This document shows positions 1,111-47,599 of a stretch of 64,000 bases of DNA, in pieces. Position 1 is the stretch's first letter, and the number at the start of each line of letters is the position of its first letter. The position numbers and the translations under genes are program-made. The notes beneath the pieces were generated by a model. It saw nothing but the letters and a program-made list of their open reading frames with translations, was not told where the DNA came from and searched no databases. The DNA is from a virus. The DNA lies in IMG/VR virus record IMGVR_UViG_2902495512_000001; one strand, given 5' to 3'.

Positions 1111-1227
1111 TACGTTTCGCGTACCTTTGATGCTTACTAATATAATACAATTCGCGTACTTAGTCAACACATAAATACTCTAAACGAGTATTTTTTATAT
1201 TTTTGTACAAAATACGCATTATGCGTA
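1111..1227. promoter_or_regulatory. Genetic switch: operators and leftward lytic promoter
   Basis: Palindromes TACGTTTCGCGTA 1111-1123, TACAATTCGCGTA 1146-1158, TACTCTAAACGAGTA 1176-1190, TACGCATTATGCGTA 1213-1227; minus-strand TTGACT-17 nt-TATATT (1167..1139). Confidence 0.7.
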
Positions 1228-1259
1228 GTAATCTTATAATTAACGAAGGAGGCCTATCA

Positions 1260-1622
1260 ATGTTTGCTGAACGCCTTAAAGAATTACGAAAAAAAGAAGC
1301 TGGTCTAACGCAAGAGAGATTAGCAATGCAATTAGGCATGGCCAAAACAACACTGGCTTCCTATGAACAAGGAAAACGACAGCCAGATCTTGAAACACTT
1401 TCTAAAATTGCAGATCGTTTTTCCGTGACAACTGACTACTTGCTTGGAAAAAATGGCACGCCAAAATGGGCAACCAAGAAAGATACCATTGACCTGAAGG
1501 ATTTTCTTGAAGCAAATGAGGGTTCGATGACCTATGGGGGTGAAGATCTTACTGAAGAAGAAAAACAACAAGTGCGTGTGGCAATGGCAACAATATTCTG
1601 GAAACGCCACAAGCATGATTAG
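1260..1622 (+). CDS. CI/ImmR-like XRE phage repressor
   Basis: N-terminal HTH (LTQERLAMQLGMAKTTLASYEQG); start moved to ATG 1260 after AAGGAGG. Confidence 0.9.
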   Translation: MFAERLKELRKKEAGLTQERLAMQLGMAKTTLASYEQGKRQPDLETLSKIADRFSVTTDYLLGKNGTPKWATKKDTIDLKDFLEANEGSMTYGGEDLTEEEKQQVRVAMATIFWKRHKHD

Positions 1623-2073: not shown

Positions 2074-3237
2074 TTGAAAAAAAGATTAACCATCGGTGCA
2101 GTTATATTGGCATCACTAGCACTAGCTTCTTGTGGAAATAGCACTAACAAATCAAGCGAATTAAGTTCAAACTCAAGCAGCCTAGTCGCTGCTAAAAGAA
2201 AAAAAGCAACCTCTTTATCTGAAAGCAAAGTTAAAGCTAGTTCTGAAAGCTCATCCACTGCTAAAACGGCGACTAACAATAGCACTCAAGTTCTAACTAA
2301 GTTAGTTTCATATACAGACAAAGAGTCTGCCGGACCAACGCAAAACTATTATTGGGACAATGGCAAGGCCAAGCTTACTAACTTTGATAGTATGAAAGCT
2401 GGTAAATATGCTTTTTCAGCTGATAATCAAGGCCGCTCATCAGTAGCCAAAGCTATGCTTACCTATGCTGAGTACCAAGCTTCTAAAGGTAGTCGACAAG
2501 GAACGCCCTTAGATCCACCTTCATGGCCAAGCACCAACCCTAAAGTGGCTATTCATTATGGATTAACAGATCGTGTTTACCACGGTTTTCTTTACAATAG
2601 AAGCCATTCAATTGCAGATAGTCTTTTGGGCTCGGGATCATATACATCGGAATATAATTTTACAACCGGCACAAGGCCTCAAAATGTTGGTGCAAATCAA
2701 GAAGGTGGTATGCGCTATGCTGAAGAGTTGGTTGAAAACTACTGGAATACGCATTCTAACTCTAAGAATACTGTTTCCTACGAAACAACTCCACTCTATA
2801 AAGGAAATGAACGAATTCCTCGTGGTTCGCTGGTAGACATTAAATCTTCAGATAACCAGCTAAACAAAGAAGTGGTTGTAATTAACTCGGTTGAAGGCAT
2901 TAAAATTAATTACAATAATGGTAGCAATGATGCCAAGGCTTATCAATCTTCTAGTCGCTCTGAATCAAGCAAAAAATACGTTTCTGAAGCACCTAAAAAA
3001 CATTCAGAAACTAGTACGACTAATAGTTCCAGTTCTGTCTCAACAAAACAGAATTCCGCATACACTACTAATGGCTCATGGACAGTGGCCGCTTCCGGCA
3101 TGGTATTTGTATCCAATTCAAACAAATATTATAGCCAAGTGACTAATCCAGGTAATTATCAATATATTAGTCAAAGTTCTGCTCAAGCAGATGGTGCACA
3201 GCAAGCTAGTCGTGGAAACCAATACGCAAGACCATAA
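2074..3237 (+). CDS. Lipoprotein DNA/RNA non-specific endonuclease (streptodornase/mitogenic-factor-like)
   Basis: Lipobox LASC, Ser-rich linker, NRSHSIA catalytic-like motif, TGTRPQN...GGMRYAE; TTG start after GGAGG. Confidence 0.8.
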   Translation: MKKRLTIGAVILASLALASCGNSTNKSSELSSNSSSLVAAKRKKATSLSESKVKASSESSSTAKTATNNSTQVLTKLVSYTDKESAGPTQNYYWDNGKAKLTNFDSMKAGKYAFSADNQGRSSVAKAMLTYAEYQASKGSRQGTPLDPPSWPSTNPKVAIHYGLTDRVYHGFLYNRSHSIADSLLGSGSYTSEYNFTTGTRPQNVGANQEGGMRYAEELVENYWNTHSNSKNTVSYETTPLYKGNERIPRGSLVDIKSSDNQLNKEVVVINSVEGIKINYNNGSNDAKAYQSSSRSESSKKYVSEAPKKHSETSTTNSSSSVSTKQNSAYTTNGSWTVAASGMVFVSNSNKYYSQVTNPGNYQYISQSSAQADGAQQASRGNQYARP

Positions 3238-3244
3238 CAATTCC

Positions 3245-3263
3245 AAGCCCCTCACCGGGCTTT
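3245..3263 (+). terminator. Short hairpin before tRNA-like element 1
   Basis: AAGCCC-CTCACC-GGGCTT followed by T. Confidence 0.45.
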
Positions 3264-3266
3264 CAC

Positions 3267-3352
3267 GCGAGTGTAGTTCAACGGTAGAACGGTGCTCCTT
3301 TGAATTGCTAACTAGATACTAACAGATGCAGGTTCGACTCCTGCCGCTCGCT
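3267..3352 (+). ncRNA. tRNA-like element 1 (anticodon arm replaced)
   Basis: GCGAGTG/CGCTCGC acceptor, GTTC/GAAC D stem, GCAGG-TTCGACT-CCTGC T arm; 37-nt non-canonical middle. Confidence 0.85.
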
Positions 3353-3377
3353 TTAACCATAAAGAAGGCTTAATGCT

Positions 3378-3554
3378 ATGGATAGTGAAATTTCAAAATA
3401 CGAGCTAATTGCCACGATGAAGAAAGATATACAGACATTTATGGACTCAGAATCCATGTTATATCTAAAAAAAGATTCATATTCAACAGAAGAATATGAC
3501 CGTATGCTTACAGAAGTAAAAGATGATTTGAAAACACGGCTATTGCAAAAATAA
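3378..3554 (+). CDS. 58-aa hypothetical protein A (MDSEISKYELI...), paralog of 5459..5635
   Basis: AAAGAAGG RBS; 26/58 identical to its paralog by manual ungapped alignment. Confidence 0.85.
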   Translation: MDSEISKYELIATMKKDIQTFMDSESMLYLKKDSYSTEEYDRMLTEVKDDLKTRLLQK

Positions 3555-3596
3555 TTATGAACTCAGTAAATGATAGTCAGCCCTAGCTGACTTCAC

Positions 3597-3680
3597 GCGA
3601 GTGTAGTTCAACGGTAGAATGGTTCCTTTAATTCAAATATAGCCTACCTTCCAATGCAGGTTCGACTCCTGCCGCTCGCA
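3597..3680 (+). ncRNA. tRNA-like element 2
   Basis: Same acceptor and T arms as element 1; 35-nt middle; preceded by hairpin AGTCAG/CTGACT. Confidence 0.85.
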
Positions 3681-3719
3681 TAGAGATTCTTAACTCAATC
3701 AAACACAGGAGAATCACCA

Positions 3720-3845
3720 ATGTTCAATTCTTTAACTTATTTTTTAAAAAGCCTGTTCTCTATTAAGTGGAGCACTGAGCTATTATTTATGGCAATTATA
3801 TCAGCATTAATTGCATATTTTCTCTATAAAAAGCTTCATCACTAA
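3720..3845 (+). CDS. 41-aa small membrane protein (MFNSLTYFLKSLFSIKW...)
   Basis: AGGAG RBS; one hydrophobic segment followed by a KKLHH tail. Confidence 0.7.
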   Translation: MFNSLTYFLKSLFSIKWSTELLFMAIISALIAYFLYKKLHH

Positions 3846-3857
3846 TTGATTACAAAC

Positions 3858-3950
3858 GTGGGTGTAGTTCAACGGCAGAACGGCAACTTCTTATGGGATA
3901 CCCTTCCTTTATTTCTTATTGCCATGCGGGTTCAACTCCTGCCACTCACA
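3858..3950 (+). ncRNA. tRNA-like element 3
   Basis: GTGGGTG/CACTCAC acceptor, GTTC/GAAC D stem, GGCAA/TTGCC stem with enlarged loop, GCGGG-TTCAACT-CCTGC T arm. Confidence 0.85.
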
Positions 3951-4005
3951 TTGACCAGTCAGGATGTCATTAAAAGCTAGAATATATTTTCAGGAGGATA
4001 TTTAA

Positions 4006-4383
4006 ATGATTCAAGAATTCAAAGAATTTATCTCACGTGGTAATGTAATGGATTTAGCAGTCGGCGTTATTATTGGGGCTGCATTTACTGCTATCGTTAA
4101 ATCATTGGTTAATAATTTAATAAATCCACTAATAGGTGTTTTTTTAGGACAAATTGATTTCTCTAGCCTTGTTTTAAAAGTTGGCAATGCTACTTTTAAA
4201 TACGGTTCCTTTATTAATTCTGTCATTAATTTTTTGATTATTGCATTTGTGGTATTTTTACTAGTCAAAATGATTAATAAAATTATGCCTAAAAAAGAGG
4301 ATGTCGAAGCCGATCCTATTCCAACAGCCGAAGAAAAATATCTTTCAGAAATTGTATCATTATTAAAGCAACAGAAAAAATAA
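4006..4383 (+). CDS. mscL: Large-conductance mechanosensitive channel
   Basis: [24 protein letters not shown] and [14 protein letters not shown] signatures; C-terminal LSEIVSLL helix. Confidence 0.97.
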
Positions 4384-4400
4384 TTGCAGTAAGAAATCAG

Positions 4401-4769
4401 GTGCCATTCATGAAAAAATCAGAAGATTTATCTACTAAAGATTGGAAACAAGCACAGTCTGCCGTCTTCAAAGAGTACGAAGATTTTATTAAAAGAGTTC
4501 AAGAAAATGGTGTAGACTATGCTATTCAGCATGCAAGACGTTTAGTAAATTACCAAAAATTAGTTACCGAATGGCAACATAAAATAAATATTTTAATGGA
4601 CGATCTATCTAATAACCACGTCGCTTTAAGTGTTTTTAAAGACTTAGAAGAAGGAAACGAAAGTCATGTTTTGAGTAGAGCTTACGAGATTATGAAGAAG
4701 TGGCCAGAGTTCAACCCAGAACCATTAACCATTTGGCTAGAGCTCATCGAAGACTCAGATGATGAATAA
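4401..4769 (+). CDS. Hypothetical protein (122 aa)
   Basis: Open frame in the same operon; no recognised motif. Confidence 0.7.
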   Translation: MPFMKKSEDLSTKDWKQAQSAVFKEYEDFIKRVQENGVDYAIQHARRLVNYQKLVTEWQHKINILMDDLSNNHVALSVFKDLEEGNESHVLSRAYEIMKKWPEFNPEPLTIWLELIEDSDDE

Positions 4770-4778
4770 TAAAACTAA

Positions 4779-5081
4779 ATGTCAAAGGAAGAATTTCAAA
4801 TGAAGATTATCAACGTCGCATTGCATGTTAAACCAGAACTCAAAAAAGAATATGAAGATTTCATTCATGAACTTGTTATTAATTCAGCACAAGAAGCTGG
4901 TAATGAATTCTATGGACATTTCAAAAAGTTAGATAGTGATAATGATTACGAAATTATTGAACACTGGAAAGATCAAGAAGCCGTGGATTTCCATAATGAC
5001 ACCCCTCATTTCCAGAAATTTCTAGCACACGTCAGTGACTATCTAACTTCAGAACCAGAAATTACCAGAATGGATTATTAG
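4779..5081 (+). CDS. Antibiotic-biosynthesis-monooxygenase (ABM) / putative quinol monooxygenase
   Basis: E.GN..Y...Y.IIEHWKDQEAVDFHNDTPHF pattern. Confidence 0.85.
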   Translation: MSKEEFQMKIINVALHVKPELKKEYEDFIHELVINSAQEAGNEFYGHFKKLDSDNDYEIIEHWKDQEAVDFHNDTPHFQKFLAHVSDYLTSEPEITRMDY

Positions 5082-5135
5082 TTTTCTCGCTTTACAATTA
5101 AGTAAAAATAAATAGCACTTAATTGCAAAGCTTCC

Positions 5136-5209
5136 GGACCTTTAGCTCAGTTGGTTAGAGCAGACGGCTCATAACCGTCCGGTCGTTGGTTCGAGCCCAA
5201 CAAGGTCCA
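5136..5209 (+). tRNA. tRNA-Ile2/Met (CAT)
   Basis: Canonical cloverleaf GGACCTT...GACGG-CTCATAA-CCGTC...AAGGTCC-A, resembling the Firmicute lysidine tRNA-Ile2; no encoded CCA. Confidence 0.92.
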
Positions 5210-5215
5210 TTTCAC

Positions 5216-5301
5216 GCGAGCGTAGTTCAACGGTAGAACAGTACTCCTTTGAATTGCTAACTAGATACTTTCAGATGTAGGTTCGACTCCTGCCGCTCGC
5301 T
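5216..5301 (+). ncRNA. tRNA-like element 4
   Basis: GCGAGCG/CGCTCGC acceptor; loop CTCCTTTGAATTGCTAACTAGATACT identical to element 1. Confidence 0.85.
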
Positions 5302-5348
5302 TTGTAACAAATAACCCATACTACCGCTTACTTTAGTACGTACATCGC

Positions 5349-5435
5349 GTGGGCGTAATTCAATGGTAGAATAACGATTTCAGCCCTTCTCTCTCGTTTG
5401 AAATTGTTATGTAGGTTCAATCCCTGCCACCCACT
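5349..5435 (+). ncRNA. tRNA-like element 5
   Basis: GTGGGCG/CACCCAC acceptor; 10-bp stem AACGATTTCA/TGAAATTGTT with 16-nt pyrimidine loop; GTAGG-TTCAATC-CCTGC T arm. Confidence 0.85.
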
Positions 5436-5458
5436 TTTAAAAGAAAGAAGGTAAGATT

Positions 5459-5635
5459 ATGGATAAAGATATGTCGAAATATGAACTCATAGATAACATT
5501 ACTAATGACTTAACCTCTTTTATTAATCTGTATGCTTTCGTTTATCTTACAAAAGATAGCTACTCAAGGAAAGAATATGACCGCATAATCCAAGGAATGG
5601 AAAGAGATATGGTTGATCGTCTTAAGCAAAAATAA
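5459..5635 (+). CDS. 58-aa hypothetical protein B (MDKDMSKYELI...), paralog of 3378..3554
   Basis: AAAGAAGG RBS; conserved SKYELI, YL.KDSYS..EYDR and RL.QK. Confidence 0.85.
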   Translation: MDKDMSKYELIDNITNDLTSFINLYAFVYLTKDSYSRKEYDRIIQGMERDMVDRLKQK

Positions 5636-5692
5636 TTGTAGGTACATTCTAATTAACTGTTGAGCCGACCAAAACCCATTGTTGGCTCTTAT

Positions 5693-5763
5693 GCGAGTGT
5701 AGTTTAGTGGTAAAACGACAGCCTTCCAAGCTGTAGTCGCGGGTCCGATTCCCGTCACTCGCT
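5693..5763 (+). tRNA. tRNA-Gly (TCC), T-loop variant
   Basis: GCGAGTG/CACTCGC acceptor, ACAGC-CTTCCAA-GCTGT anticodon arm; T loop TCCGATT instead of TTCGATT. Confidence 0.88.
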
Positions 5764-5858
5764 TAATACCCCGTAATTGGGGTATATATTTTAAATTAAA
5801 GAGAACATACGTTTGGCAATATCAACCTATTGTTATTTCCAGTTAGGAGGAATAAAAC

Positions 5859-6980
5859 ATGTCAGTAACCAAACTTAATAATGGTAAATGGCAAGCCCGT
5901 GTCTCTTATAAAGATGATGACGGTAACTATAAGTCAGTTACTCATTTAGAAAAGCGCAAAACTGACGCCGCTGAGTGGGAAACTAAAACTAAAAATGCTC
6001 TGCTGGAAGGTGCTGACTTATCACGTAGCACTGAGAGTCTAAAGCATTATTTTCTTGATTGGATCAGAATTTACAAAACTGACGGCGTATCGCGTCATAC
6101 TCACGAGCTGTATATGGGCAACTGGCACCACATCTCCGCATATTTTAAGGATCAACCTATGAGCGCAATTAAACGGCCGGATTATCAGAAATTTCTGAAT
6201 GAATTTGGTCGCAGTCATGGAATTGCCACATCTCACAAACTTCATCAACAAGTACACACCGCAATCAAGGACGCTGTAGCCGATGGTATTCTAAAACGTG
6301 ACTTTGCTTACAAGGCACACGTCACTGGACGCCCTCCTAAGCCCGTAGAGGAAAAGTATTTGACGTTGTCCGATTATAAGAAACTGCGTAAATATCTCAT
6401 TAAAACAGCTGATTATGACCACATGACTATGCTGATGATGCTGTTTCAACTAGAAACTGGAACCAGGTTCGAGGAAGCTGCTGGCCTAACGTGGGATAAT
6501 TTGGATTTGAATAATGGAATAGTTCACATTAAACAGCAATGGGACGCCCGTAGACAGACTTTTCGTCCAACTAAGGGAAATGGACAGGCAGATGGAGATA
6601 TAACCATAGGACCCGCCTACTGTCGTTTTATGAGGAGCTATCGTAATGCGCAGAAAGATTATTTAGAATTACACGAAATGAAGAATCCTAAGAACCTCGT
6701 ATTTTGGTCCAAACTAGGAAAAATAGTGGGCAATGGGAATGCAAACGAAGAGCTAGGACGTATTTGTAACCGTCTAAAGATCAACAAAGTTACAACACAC
6801 GCCATGAGGCACACACACGCTTCAATTCTTATCTTAAATCATGAGTCCCTTCCCTATGTTCAACATCGCCTTCGACATCAAAAACTAGAAACGACCGTTA
6901 ACACCTACGTCCATCTTATTGAAGAAGAAAACGGCGTGTCAGATAAGAAGGCCACTGAGCTAATGGACGAAGGATTTTAG
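5859..6980 (+). CDS. int: Tyrosine-recombinase phage integrase
   Basis: N-terminal arm-binding domain; TGTRFEE, HAMRH and RLRHQKLETTVNTYVH motifs. Confidence 0.95.
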   Translation: MSVTKLNNGKWQARVSYKDDDGNYKSVTHLEKRKTDAAEWETKTKNALLEGADLSRSTESLKHYFLDWIRIYKTDGVSRHTHELYMGNWHHISAYFKDQPMSAIKRPDYQKFLNEFGRSHGIATSHKLHQQVHTAIKDAVADGILKRDFAYKAHVTGRPPKPVEEKYLTLSDYKKLRKYLIKTADYDHMTMLMMLFQLETGTRFEEAAGLTWDNLDLNNGIVHIKQQWDARRQTFRPTKGNGQADGDITIGPAYCRFMRSYRNAQKDYLELHEMKNPKNLVFWSKLGKIVGNGNANEELGRICNRLKINKVTTHAMRHTHASILILNHESLPYVQHRLRHQKLETTVNTYVHLIEEENGVSDKKATELMDEGF

Positions 6981-41740: not shown

Positions 41741-42253
41741 CTAGCCATTTTCTTGGTTGACTTTATCGATTACTTCCTGCAATTTATCCATTGGAATACC
41801 GGCATACTCAGCCTTCTTAGCCAAATCGGTTATCTCGGCGCTAATCTCTTCAGCGTATTCACGTGGATAACGTTCAATAACTAGCTGTTGCGCTGGCGTC
41901 CGATCATTTGGATTAATTGCAATAGCGTTCTCAAACTCAGCTTCCATTGCCTCTCGTTCTTGCTGCTCTTTTTTCTGACGCATTAGGGCTGAGAACATGT
42001 CACCCTTTAGACGCCTGTCATTCTGAAATGACAGCACACCGAAATTCTCACGAGCGCCAGAATAATTAAGCCAAAAATCGTTAATTACATTTGCTAACGA
42101 CTTCCTTATTTGTGAATCAGTGCTTCTTGATCCACTCTTCAACCGAGACAATTGTCCGGGAGAAACATGCGTCCTATCTGCAATCTGCTGCTGTGTTAGT
42201 GTTTTATTTTTGCCTAATGCCAATGACAATTGCTCTGCAAACTTGTTCTTCAT
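41741..42253 (-). CDS. XRE-family HTH phage regulator (spans the repeat junction)
   Basis: LTQQQIADRTHVSPGQLSRLKSG; intact across 41964/41965. Confidence 0.85.
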   Translation of the reverse strand: MKNKFAEQLSLALGKNKTLTQQQIADRTHVSPGQLSRLKSGSRSTDSQIRKSLANVINDFWLNYSGARENFGVLSFQNDRRLKGDMFSALMRQKKEQQEREAMEAEFENAIAINPNDRTPAQQLVIERYPREYAEEISAEITDLAKKAEYAGIPMDKLQEVIDKVNQENG

Positions 42254-45341: not shown

Positions 45342-45518
45342 ATGGATAGTGAAATTTCAAAATACGAGCTAATTGCCACGATGAAGAAAGATATACAGAC
45401 ATTTATGGACTCAGAATCCATGTTATATCTAAAAAAAGATTCATATTCAACAGAAGAATATGACCGTATGCTTACAGAAGTAAAAGATGATTTGAAAACA
45501 CGGCTATTGCAAAAATAA
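45342..45518 (+). CDS. 58-aa protein A (repeat copy)
   Basis: Identical to 3378..3554. Confidence 0.85.
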   Translation: MDSEISKYELIATMKKDIQTFMDSESMLYLKKDSYSTEEYDRMLTEVKDDLKTRLLQK

Positions 45519-47422: not shown

Positions 47423-47599
47423 ATGGATAAAGATATGTCGAAATATGAACTCATAGATAACATTACTAATGACTTAACCTCTTTTATTAATCTGTATGCT
47501 TTCGTTTATCTTACAAAAGATAGCTACTCAAGGAAAGAATATGACCGCATAATCCAAGGAATGGAAAGAGATATGGTTGATCGTCTTAAGCAAAAATAA
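47423..47599 (+). CDS. 58-aa protein B (repeat copy)
   Basis: Identical to 5459..5635. Confidence 0.85.
   Translation: MDKDMSKYELIDNITNDLTSFINLYAFVYLTKDSYSRKEYDRIIQGMERDMVDRLKQK

Follow-up and report, generated by a model that had tools for sequence, protein, structure and literature searches.

Whether a small protein gene standing directly behind a tRNA-like RNA forms a dedicated pair with that RNA, or is one cargo among many of a common leader, is the question raised by a stretch of viral DNA from the IMG/VR record IMGVR_UViG_2902495512_000001 (64,000 nucleotides (nt), hereafter the window). Two genes for 58-residue proteins lie on its plus strand at 3378–3554 (copy 1, subfamily A) and 5459–5635 (copy 2, subfamily B), each behind a plus-strand tRNA-like element (element 1 at 3267–3352 and element 5 at 5349–5435). 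A first-pass annotation of this DNA had proposed that RNA and protein were duplicated and diverged as a unit, and that the protein may be the dedicated partner of the RNA, as a chaperone, an effector or a toxin with an RNA antitoxin. Our analysis makes it rather probable that the 58-residue gene rides as cargo in a shufflable, tRNA-punctuated moron cassette and that the element is a generic cis-acting leader. The two copies in the window would then be two cassettes whose leaders belong to subtypes IV and I, and not an RNA-protein unit that diverged together.

The position of the gene behind the element was examined in 147 copies from IMG/VR proviruses and from phage and plasmid records, which comprise 70 non-redundant upstream-plus-gene sequences and 37 distinct proteins. 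The element ends 23–30 nt before the start codon in 147/147 copies, including two that were missed by the pattern search (an extra mismatch in the T arm) and confirmed by eye. Three metagenome contigs with the most divergent homologs have an element upstream in 4/4 copies, and one of these contigs carries two tandem cassettes. Among species-representative genomes the element is upstream in all eight copies from 7/7 carriers, in six by coordinates and in G264, which has a variant T arm, by inspection. The location directly behind a tRNA-like element, as first described, therefore holds without exception among the copies examined and across at least five subfamilies; the outcome named at that time as fatal to the proposal, homologs mostly without the element, was not seen.

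The spacing and the flanks of the gene are also conserved. In the window, the ribosome-binding motif AAAGAAGG lies 8–9 nt past the element, and the start codons are 25 nt (copy 1) and 23 nt (copy 2) past it. The motif occupies 3361–3368 on the plus strand for the first open reading frame (ORF), 9 nt before the ATG, while for the second the longer form GAAAGAAGG is at 5443–5451 on the same strand with its AAAGAAGG portion at 5444–5451. The shared motif behind elements 1 and 5 had thus been recognized correctly, but the distance of about 25 nt assigned to it is that of the start codon. All distinct upstream sequences listed carry GAAAGAAGG, which takes the form AAAGAAGG in window copy 1 and in locus L049. 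Every 58-residue ORF is followed by a further tRNA or tRNA-like element 28–57 nt downstream. In subfamily B this is tRNA-Gly at 57 nt (55/57 copies); in the type-A copies sampled it is the next element, about 41–42 nt (once 28 nt) past the stop codon, in 16/18, and tRNA-Gly in the other 2/18. The hairpin-element geometry and that between the element and the Shine-Dalgarno (SD) sequence are kept even with unrelated flanks, and the layout of t-element type, with hairpin, element, SD, ORF, hairpin and next element in one unit, is present.

The elements were compared with the Rfam tRNA model RF00005 (gathering score 29). Element 1 scores 47.7 bits, element 5 scores 38.6 bits, and element 2 (3597–3680, plus strand), which leads the cassette of a 41-residue peptide and bounds the mRNA of the first ORF on its 3' side, scores 44.5 bits. 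Element 1 has tRNA-Gly-type acceptor, D and T arms, a 41-nt insert of type IV and no encoded CCA. Element 5 has the acceptor GTGGGCG/CACCCAC, and its type I insert is a 12-bp extended arm with a CU-rich 16-nt loop. The acceptor, D and T arms of a canonical tRNA are present with their conserved loops, and the 5-bp anticodon stem and 7-nt loop are absent: in elements 1 and 5 the central 13–15 model positions, which correspond to the anticodon arm, are replaced by about 28 or more unaligned nt. The inserts are 37–48 nt long and belong to about eight or more unrelated types. The Lys and Leu calls made by ARAGORN on the elements are forced; these are not decoding tRNAs.

The acceptor, D and T stems pair in 93–100% of 153 unique elements, and double compensatory changes were found in them (e.g., C:G to T:A and A:T to G:C). 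Because the stems are kept with compensatory changes, the alignments indicate that the shape of the element RNA is under selection. The commonest post-discriminator contexts listed, 279/284 in sum, have no CCA; a CCA-less 3' edge is a hallmark of RNase Z substrates in Bacillus subtilis. Hairpins border the cassettes on the plus strand. The hairpin AGCCC/GGGCT at 3246–3261, read from the sequence, ends 5 nt before element 1; it has no T-run and does not qualify as a terminator. A hairpin 5' of the element was found in most type-A copies, with varying stem and loop letters. The hairpin GTCAGC/GCTGAC at 3576–3591 closes cassette 1, 5 nt before element 2, and a hairpin of 8 bp at 5662–5688 closes cassette 2, 4 nt before tRNA-Gly.

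In most inserts (3291–5410) there are CU-rich runs, CCTTCT or CTCCTTT for example, with complementarity to SD sequences, and the insert types on L082 and L083 (CCCCGCTCTT) show far weaker complementarity. In minimum-free-energy folds of 11 leader-plus-start regions, a comparison that is not rigorous, the SD was not paired with the insert loop and was unpaired or weakly paired in most regions, which gives no sign of its sequestration in cis.

The element is not confined to the 58-residue gene. Among 284 non-redundant element contexts, 56 (about 20%) lead to the 58-residue family, 34 to the 41-residue membrane peptide, 17 to a 62-residue membrane protein, 13 to MscL, 10 to a 120-residue membrane protein and 9 to a lipoprotein cluster whose representative has an endonuclease domain. 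There are 26 cargo clusters in all (about 25 other families), mostly of membrane proteins or lipoproteins, and 55 contexts are tandem elements. An element-seeded search yielded 120 provirus loci with 283 elements; 61 of these elements precede a 58-residue gene, and 63 of the loci are without it. The family is absent from eight whole element-bearing phage or provirus records (the circular pAWA2045, OP650937 and six proviruses, three of them at least 95% complete), in a search in which the positive controls matched. Likewise, 5/11 element-bearing Lactobacillaceae species genomes are without the 58-residue protein.

The insert types are also exchanged among cargos. The type IV insert, found in the leader of copy 1, precedes 93-, 62- and 41-residue cargos as well, the insert type that leads the 41-residue peptide in the window leads a 58-residue gene in L059, and at least eight insert types precede the 58-residue family. 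Because about 80% of the elements lead elsewhere and the insert types are exchanged, the RNA is a generic cassette leader common to many unrelated cargos, not a private partner of this protein, and no simple co-divergence is seen. The proposed dedication of the element to the protein finds no support in these contexts, records and genomes, and the swapping of insert types shows that the pair did not simply diverge as a unit. The exception to this swapping is subfamily B, which always occurs with its own element type; the type I insert was found only in front of it.

Several other observations concern the cassettes. The 41-residue peptide (3720–3845, plus strand, behind element 2) has a single hydrophobic helix with a KKLHH tail. 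Among the cargos it ranks second in frequency, it always begins 39 nt behind the leader, and its size and shape recall type I toxins or small holin-like peptides. At L010:3365–4282, the cassette right after the 58-residue gene encodes a 305-residue protein with a PemK/MazF-like toxin domain (Pfam E = 1e-7). In a contig from RNA-library run X13, positions 3357–3597, the whole segment of the first ORF, are replaced by 110 other letters, and another RNA-library contig continues past 3356 into a different 58-residue variant; both are cassette swaps at the element border. The record OP650937.1 (L204, 20874–26039), named 'Hujiaoplasma phage zrk29-2', is marked UNVERIFIED_ORG with a Tenericutes bacterium as stated host. 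It shares tRNA-Met, tRNA-like elements and the 62-residue membrane cargo with prophages of Lactiplantibacillus plantarum (86% identity over 171 nt); it looks Lactiplantibacillus-type and is probably misattributed.

Both ORFs are genuine expressed prophage genes, for which no function is recorded. The translations given in the first-pass annotation agree with ours letter for letter, and the two proteins are paralogs, with 26/58 identical and 41/58 similar residues in a gapless alignment (BLASTP E = 1e-16). The exact sequence of copy 1 is on record on 22 contigs and that of copy 2 on 291 contigs. PHROG 15564 is matched end to end, with residues 1–58 on profile positions 1–58, by copy 1 (E = 1.1e-19) and copy 2 (E = 6.8e-37). 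Among 12 family members, the ratio of nonsynonymous to synonymous substitution rates (dN/dS) is 0.1–0.3, and differences by codon position are skewed to the third (e.g., 6/2/13 and 4/3/16); dS is saturated between subfamilies. Cluster mates are publicly named hypothetical, 'prophage P1 protein 4', 'prophage P2a protein 5' or 'prophage Lp2 protein 5' in L. plantarum WCFS1 and other strains, and the WCFS1 proteins P1 protein 4 and P2a protein 5 are each one residue away from copy 1. The genes had been called unannotated, which is true of the ORF track used in the first reading but not of public records, where named prophage proteins and PHROG 15564 exist.

A published table (Table 2, PMC6459948) gives both RNA-seq and proteomics values for one of these relatives, lp_0627 ('Prophage P1 protein 4'). 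A member of the family is therefore transcribed and translated in an uninduced lysogen, and the possibility that the ORFs are not translated, raised at first as a reason for abandoning the proposal, is not borne out. RNA-library contigs from four studies cover both ORFs, which is a weak indication because DNA carry-over is possible; those of run X1 have no cover over copy 1, which counts neither way. In phage PM411 (MG788324.1) the 58-residue homolog is labelled 'alpha-amylase', and nearby small ORFs have equally improbable labels, among them 'glutathione reductase' and 'glycyl-tRNA synthetase beta chain'; these enzyme names look like spurious automatic annotation.

The protein was modelled by AlphaFold2 with an alignment of 10 sequences as a two-helix hairpin (predicted local distance difference test (pLDDT) 91.9; helices 7–30 and 37–56). 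The conserved parts are an N-terminal SKYELI, a KDSYS turn and a C-terminal RLxQK. The isoelectric point (pI) is 4.6–7.9, mostly acidic, and there is no hydrophobic segment. Searches of Pfam, NCBIfam and PADLOC gave nothing significant, the PDB profile search gave nothing at E ≤ 10, and the ESM Atlas feature search gave no usable match. Foldseek against PDB, Swiss-Prot models and BFVD returned generic hairpins with a best E of about 0.4 (in the viral library). Sub-threshold matches to DUF6947, MatP_C, SoxS and DndG, each in 1–2/10 members, were treated as noise.

Resemblances in fold were found to two known groups. The phage anti-activator Aqs1 (PDB 6v7u) has a similar size and a two-helix hairpin (TMq 0.63), a weak fold match that is not significant. 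The DHp (HisKA) hairpins are of the same size and shape, and the template modelling (TM) score to HisKA-containing Atlas models is 0.87 over 54 residues, for a shape that is generic; however, an identity with HisKA/DHp was rejected, since PF00512 is absent among the matches at E ≤ 1 in 10 members and there is no conserved histidine. Hairpins of the 58-residue size match many unrelated proteins. A bare and mostly acidic helical hairpin, as predicted here, suits an RNA chaperone poorly. With low confidence, we infer that the protein is most likely a soluble, cytoplasmic, small protein-binding modulator in the lysogen, and it may have an accessory moron role such as immunity, exclusion or counter-defence.

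A HMMER search of 1.84 billion representative proteins returned five clusters of the family, one of them a truncated 43-residue form; a repetitive 635-residue match (P0013) was discarded as spurious low-complexity similarity. A word-based protein search found near-identical proteins only. The family is carried by 7/401 species-representative Lactobacillaceae genomes (sizes 2.9–3.7 Mb), and its named sources are L. plantarum, L. pentosus, L. paraplantarum and L. herbarum. At least five subfamilies with 34–55% identity can be recognized. As far as these searches indicate, the family is a narrow, orphan one, specific to Lactiplantibacillus prophages.

In the subfamily A copy at L023:3001–3173, the frame is shifted after residue 32. 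The same 43-residue product forms its own HMMER cluster (P0011), so broken gene copies circulate. In most copies of subfamily B (L005–L080), Cys-Gly, Cys-Asp, Tyr-Gly or Cys-Ala stands in place of the otherwise near-invariant pair Tyr40-Asp41, and two close subfamily B variants have a dN/dS of about 1.15. These values point to relaxed or diversifying selection on residues 40–41 of subfamily B.

Shifted by 41,964 nt, the window aligns with itself at 100% identity over 22,036 nt, and it is therefore a 41,964-bp circular genome read about 1.5 times, past its end. Positions 41965–64000 duplicate 1–22036 exactly, and each feature in the first 22 kb is seen twice. Because of this wrap-around, the plus-strand copies at 45342–45518 and 47423–47599 are the identical first and second genes read again, not extra paralogs. 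Its genes mark it as a temperate siphovirus from the L. plantarum group; near relatives were deposited as 'plasmids' of about 40 kb from L. plantarum and L. brevis, and as phage PM411.

The cassettes lie in a lysogeny operon with the order cI, ImmA/IrrE, putative lipoprotein endonuclease, small cassettes, tRNA-Gly(UCC) and tyrosine integrase. It is opened by a cI-like helix-turn-helix (HTH) repressor at 1203–1622 (plus strand; Pfam HTH_3, E = 9e-17), followed by an ImmA/IrrE M78 peptidase at 1634–2047 (Pfam Peptidase_M78, E = 8e-12) on the plus strand shared with the cassettes. The tRNA-Gly(UCC) at 5693–5763 (plus strand) is a genuine tRNA by Rfam (72 bits) and ARAGORN and the probable core of the phage attachment site (attP); its region shares 91.5% identity with the stretch of phage phig1e immediately 5' of the phig1e xis and int genes. 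A terminator-like hairpin with a T-run at 5766–5785 (plus strand) closes the operon ahead of the tyrosine integrase (5859–6980, Pfam match). On the minus strand, a Pfam scan identified a DUF771 protein at 357–662, a family of which some members are annotated as excisionases.

Within the array, only one terminator-like site was found on the plus strand, just past tRNA-Gly, and promoter-like matches are not enriched across it (19 seen vs. 18.9 expected by chance). A mimic of −35 and −10 boxes at 3592–3620, composed of TTCAC(G) before the elements and TAGAAT/TAGAAC in the D arm 17 nt apart (9/12 in element 2), was dismissed as coincidence, because promoter-like matches are at chance level regionally.

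For the cassette reading we propose the following mechanism. One lysogeny transcript, from cI/ImmA to the attP tRNA-Gly, would carry the cassettes, each made of a hairpin, an anticodon-less tRNA-Gly-like cloverleaf, an A/U-rich spacer of 8–15 nt, GAAAGAAGG, the ORF, a hairpin and the next tRNA or tRNA-like element. RNase P would cleave the 5' edge of the element and RNase Z its CCA-less 3' edge, and the polycistronic transcript would be divided into discrete hairpin-ended mRNAs. The 58-residue mRNA would be about 250 nt long, beginning about 8–10 nt before the long SD and having a hairpin at its end, and the RNase P cut would leave the hairpin at 3246–3261 as the 3' end of the mRNA before it. 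The conserved tRNA halves may double as homologous-exchange joints for cassettes between phages. One RNA-library contig (run X7) enters the Illumina adapter after 3681, one nt past the discriminator of element 2, and so hints weakly at a 3' end of an RNA. The ends of contigs at element borders were not taken as evidence of processing; they coincide with inter-element repeats and strain variants and are assembly breaks.

Several points weigh against the cassette reading. Cleavage by RNase P and RNase Z is deduced from the tRNA shape and the absence of CCA, and the RNA-library data are assembled contigs, which break at repeats and cannot show ends. The spacing of 23–30 nt and the invariant GAAAGAAGG are tighter than in any other cargo (starts 27–148 nt downstream), and a closer functional tie between gene and leader is therefore possible. 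For the function of the protein, no significant match came from Pfam, NCBIfam, PADLOC, PDB sequence or Foldseek searches. The sampled copies are mostly near-identical prophages of the L. plantarum group, and the counts do not represent independent events. If there is a real coupling, translation of the 58-residue protein would be licensed by RNase Z processing of the leader, and the protein would act back on tRNA-shaped RNAs or on the tRNA processing or surveillance machinery; in one form, it could shield phage tRNA-like RNAs or host tRNAs from a tRNA-targeting defence. We regard such coupling as unlikely.

A related explanation is that of a dedicated RNA-protein pair, in which the 58-residue protein binds, stabilises or uses the tRNA-like RNA upstream as its chaperone or effector partner. 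It would account for the element immediately upstream in all copies examined, for a spacing that is the tightest among cargos and for the rank of the family as the commonest single cargo class (56/284); the conserved basic and aromatic residues K7, Y8, R54 and K58, which would cluster at one end of the modelled hairpin, are also consistent with it. However, it leaves unexplained the roughly 80% of elements without such a protein downstream, the whole phages and the 5/11 element-bearing genomes that do without the protein, and the free exchange of insert types before the gene, and the protein itself has a mostly negative net charge (pI 4.6–7.9) with no match to an RNA-binding family or fold. 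A dedicated pair is thus doubtful at best. A historical linkage, in which the elements mark recombination joints or scars left by integration at tRNA-Gly, with no role at the RNA level, and the gene was inherited from an ancestral cassette, is not likely either, though it deserves consideration: the array abuts attP/tRNA-Gly, the elements are tRNA-Gly-like, the breakpoints of cassette exchange lie in or beside elements (including the replacement of 3357–3597 and the switch past 3356), and the family is young and narrow. Against it, the compensatory stem changes in the 153 unique elements indicate selection on RNA shape, the hairpin-element and element-SD geometry is kept amid unrelated flanks, and the arrangement is unbroken despite saturated dS between subfamilies.

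A toxin-antitoxin system is also suggested by the layout. The protein might be a toxin neutralised by the upstream RNA, as in type III systems, or an antitoxin to the neighbouring membrane peptide. As in ToxIN, a mobile element carries an RNA gene immediately 5' of a protein gene, here a small one; next after copy 1 comes the cassette of the 41-residue hydrophobic peptide (3720–3845), which is like a type I toxin in size and shape, and at one locus a cargo with a PemK/MazF domain occupies the next cassette. Unlike ToxIN, there are no tandem repeats of 34–36 nt (in 3000–6000, Tandem Repeats Finder detected no array on or close to the elements), the product is a predicted acidic helical hairpin of 58 residues, compared with an endoribonuclease of about 170 residues, and the RNA occurs mostly without the protein. 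The 41-residue peptide is present in just 36/80 protein-carrying loci, and PADLOC gave nothing significant, with a best E of 0.0085 to the unrelated DndG model in 1/10 members. We therefore consider the toxin with an RNA antitoxin, as first envisaged, and its antitoxin variant to be highly improbable. Slightly less so, but still very unlikely, is a regulator of lysogeny or excision (a recombination directionality factor or an anti-repressor) with a link to attP and the integrase. In 55/57 of its copies subfamily B is the final gene ahead of attP(tRNA-Gly) and the integrase, the operon is shared with cI/ImmA, and phig1e has a small Xis at a comparable place; yet subfamily A and other members are not beside attP, no DNA-binding fold or family was matched, the protein is mostly acidic, and the phage has the DUF771 protein at 357–662 as another candidate excisionase.

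The cassette reading, which we favour, has parallels in known systems. In plant mitochondria, t-elements and the tRNA punctuation of organelles place non-decoding tRNA shapes between coding regions, and RNase P and RNase Z set the mRNA ends there (Forner et al., 2007, PMC1920247; reviewed in PMC3790967). The phage cassettes are alike in placing non-decoding tRNA shapes between coding regions. They differ in belonging to a bacterial prophage operon and in having elements that derive from the attP tRNA-Gly, contain 37–48-nt inserts and are shuffled with their cargo, and cleavage is here a deduction. In Escherichia coli, thrU-tyrU-glyT-thrT-tufB and tyrT-tpr are mixed tRNA-mRNA operons in which the tRNA is transcribed together with the downstream message and then processed away from it, and tyrT-tpr encodes a very small protein. 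Those operons are fixed in the host and contain decoding tRNAs, whereas the phage RNAs are without an anticodon arm and head mobile cassettes.

PHROG 15564, lp_0627 and P2a protein 5 are of the same family as the 58-residue genes and show no difference from it, and the sources consulted on PHROG 15564 and the WCFS1 proteins make no mention of a link to a tRNA-like leader. In the literature on tRNA-like elements in Lactobacillus prophages, on moron cassettes and on RNase P and RNase Z in prophage operons, the arrangement was not found described. The protein family is thus already catalogued as an orphan, and its packaging in a cassette headed by a tRNA shape is the undescribed part, within the literature searched.

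For annotation, it follows that 58-residue genes under the usual ORF cut-offs can be real and translated, and that ARAGORN 'tRNA-Lys/Leu' calls in this region are not decoding tRNAs. In prophages of the L. plantarum group, accessory genes that the lysogen expresses come in exchangeable, hairpin-bounded cassettes with an anticodon-less tRNA-Gly-shaped RNA at their head, and no cargo is bound to this leader as tightly or as often as the 58-residue gene. Should the coupling of protein and leader prove real, a prophage 'tRNA-punctuated cassette' system would have the 58-residue protein as its founding cargo. If RNase P and RNase Z do cut at the elements, the cassettes would be to bacteria and phages what tRNA punctuation is to organelles, and a naturally occurring form of the engineered 'tRNA scaffold'; this would account for the expression and exchange of moron genes, and polycistronic expression in lactic acid bacteria would gain a compact processing module.

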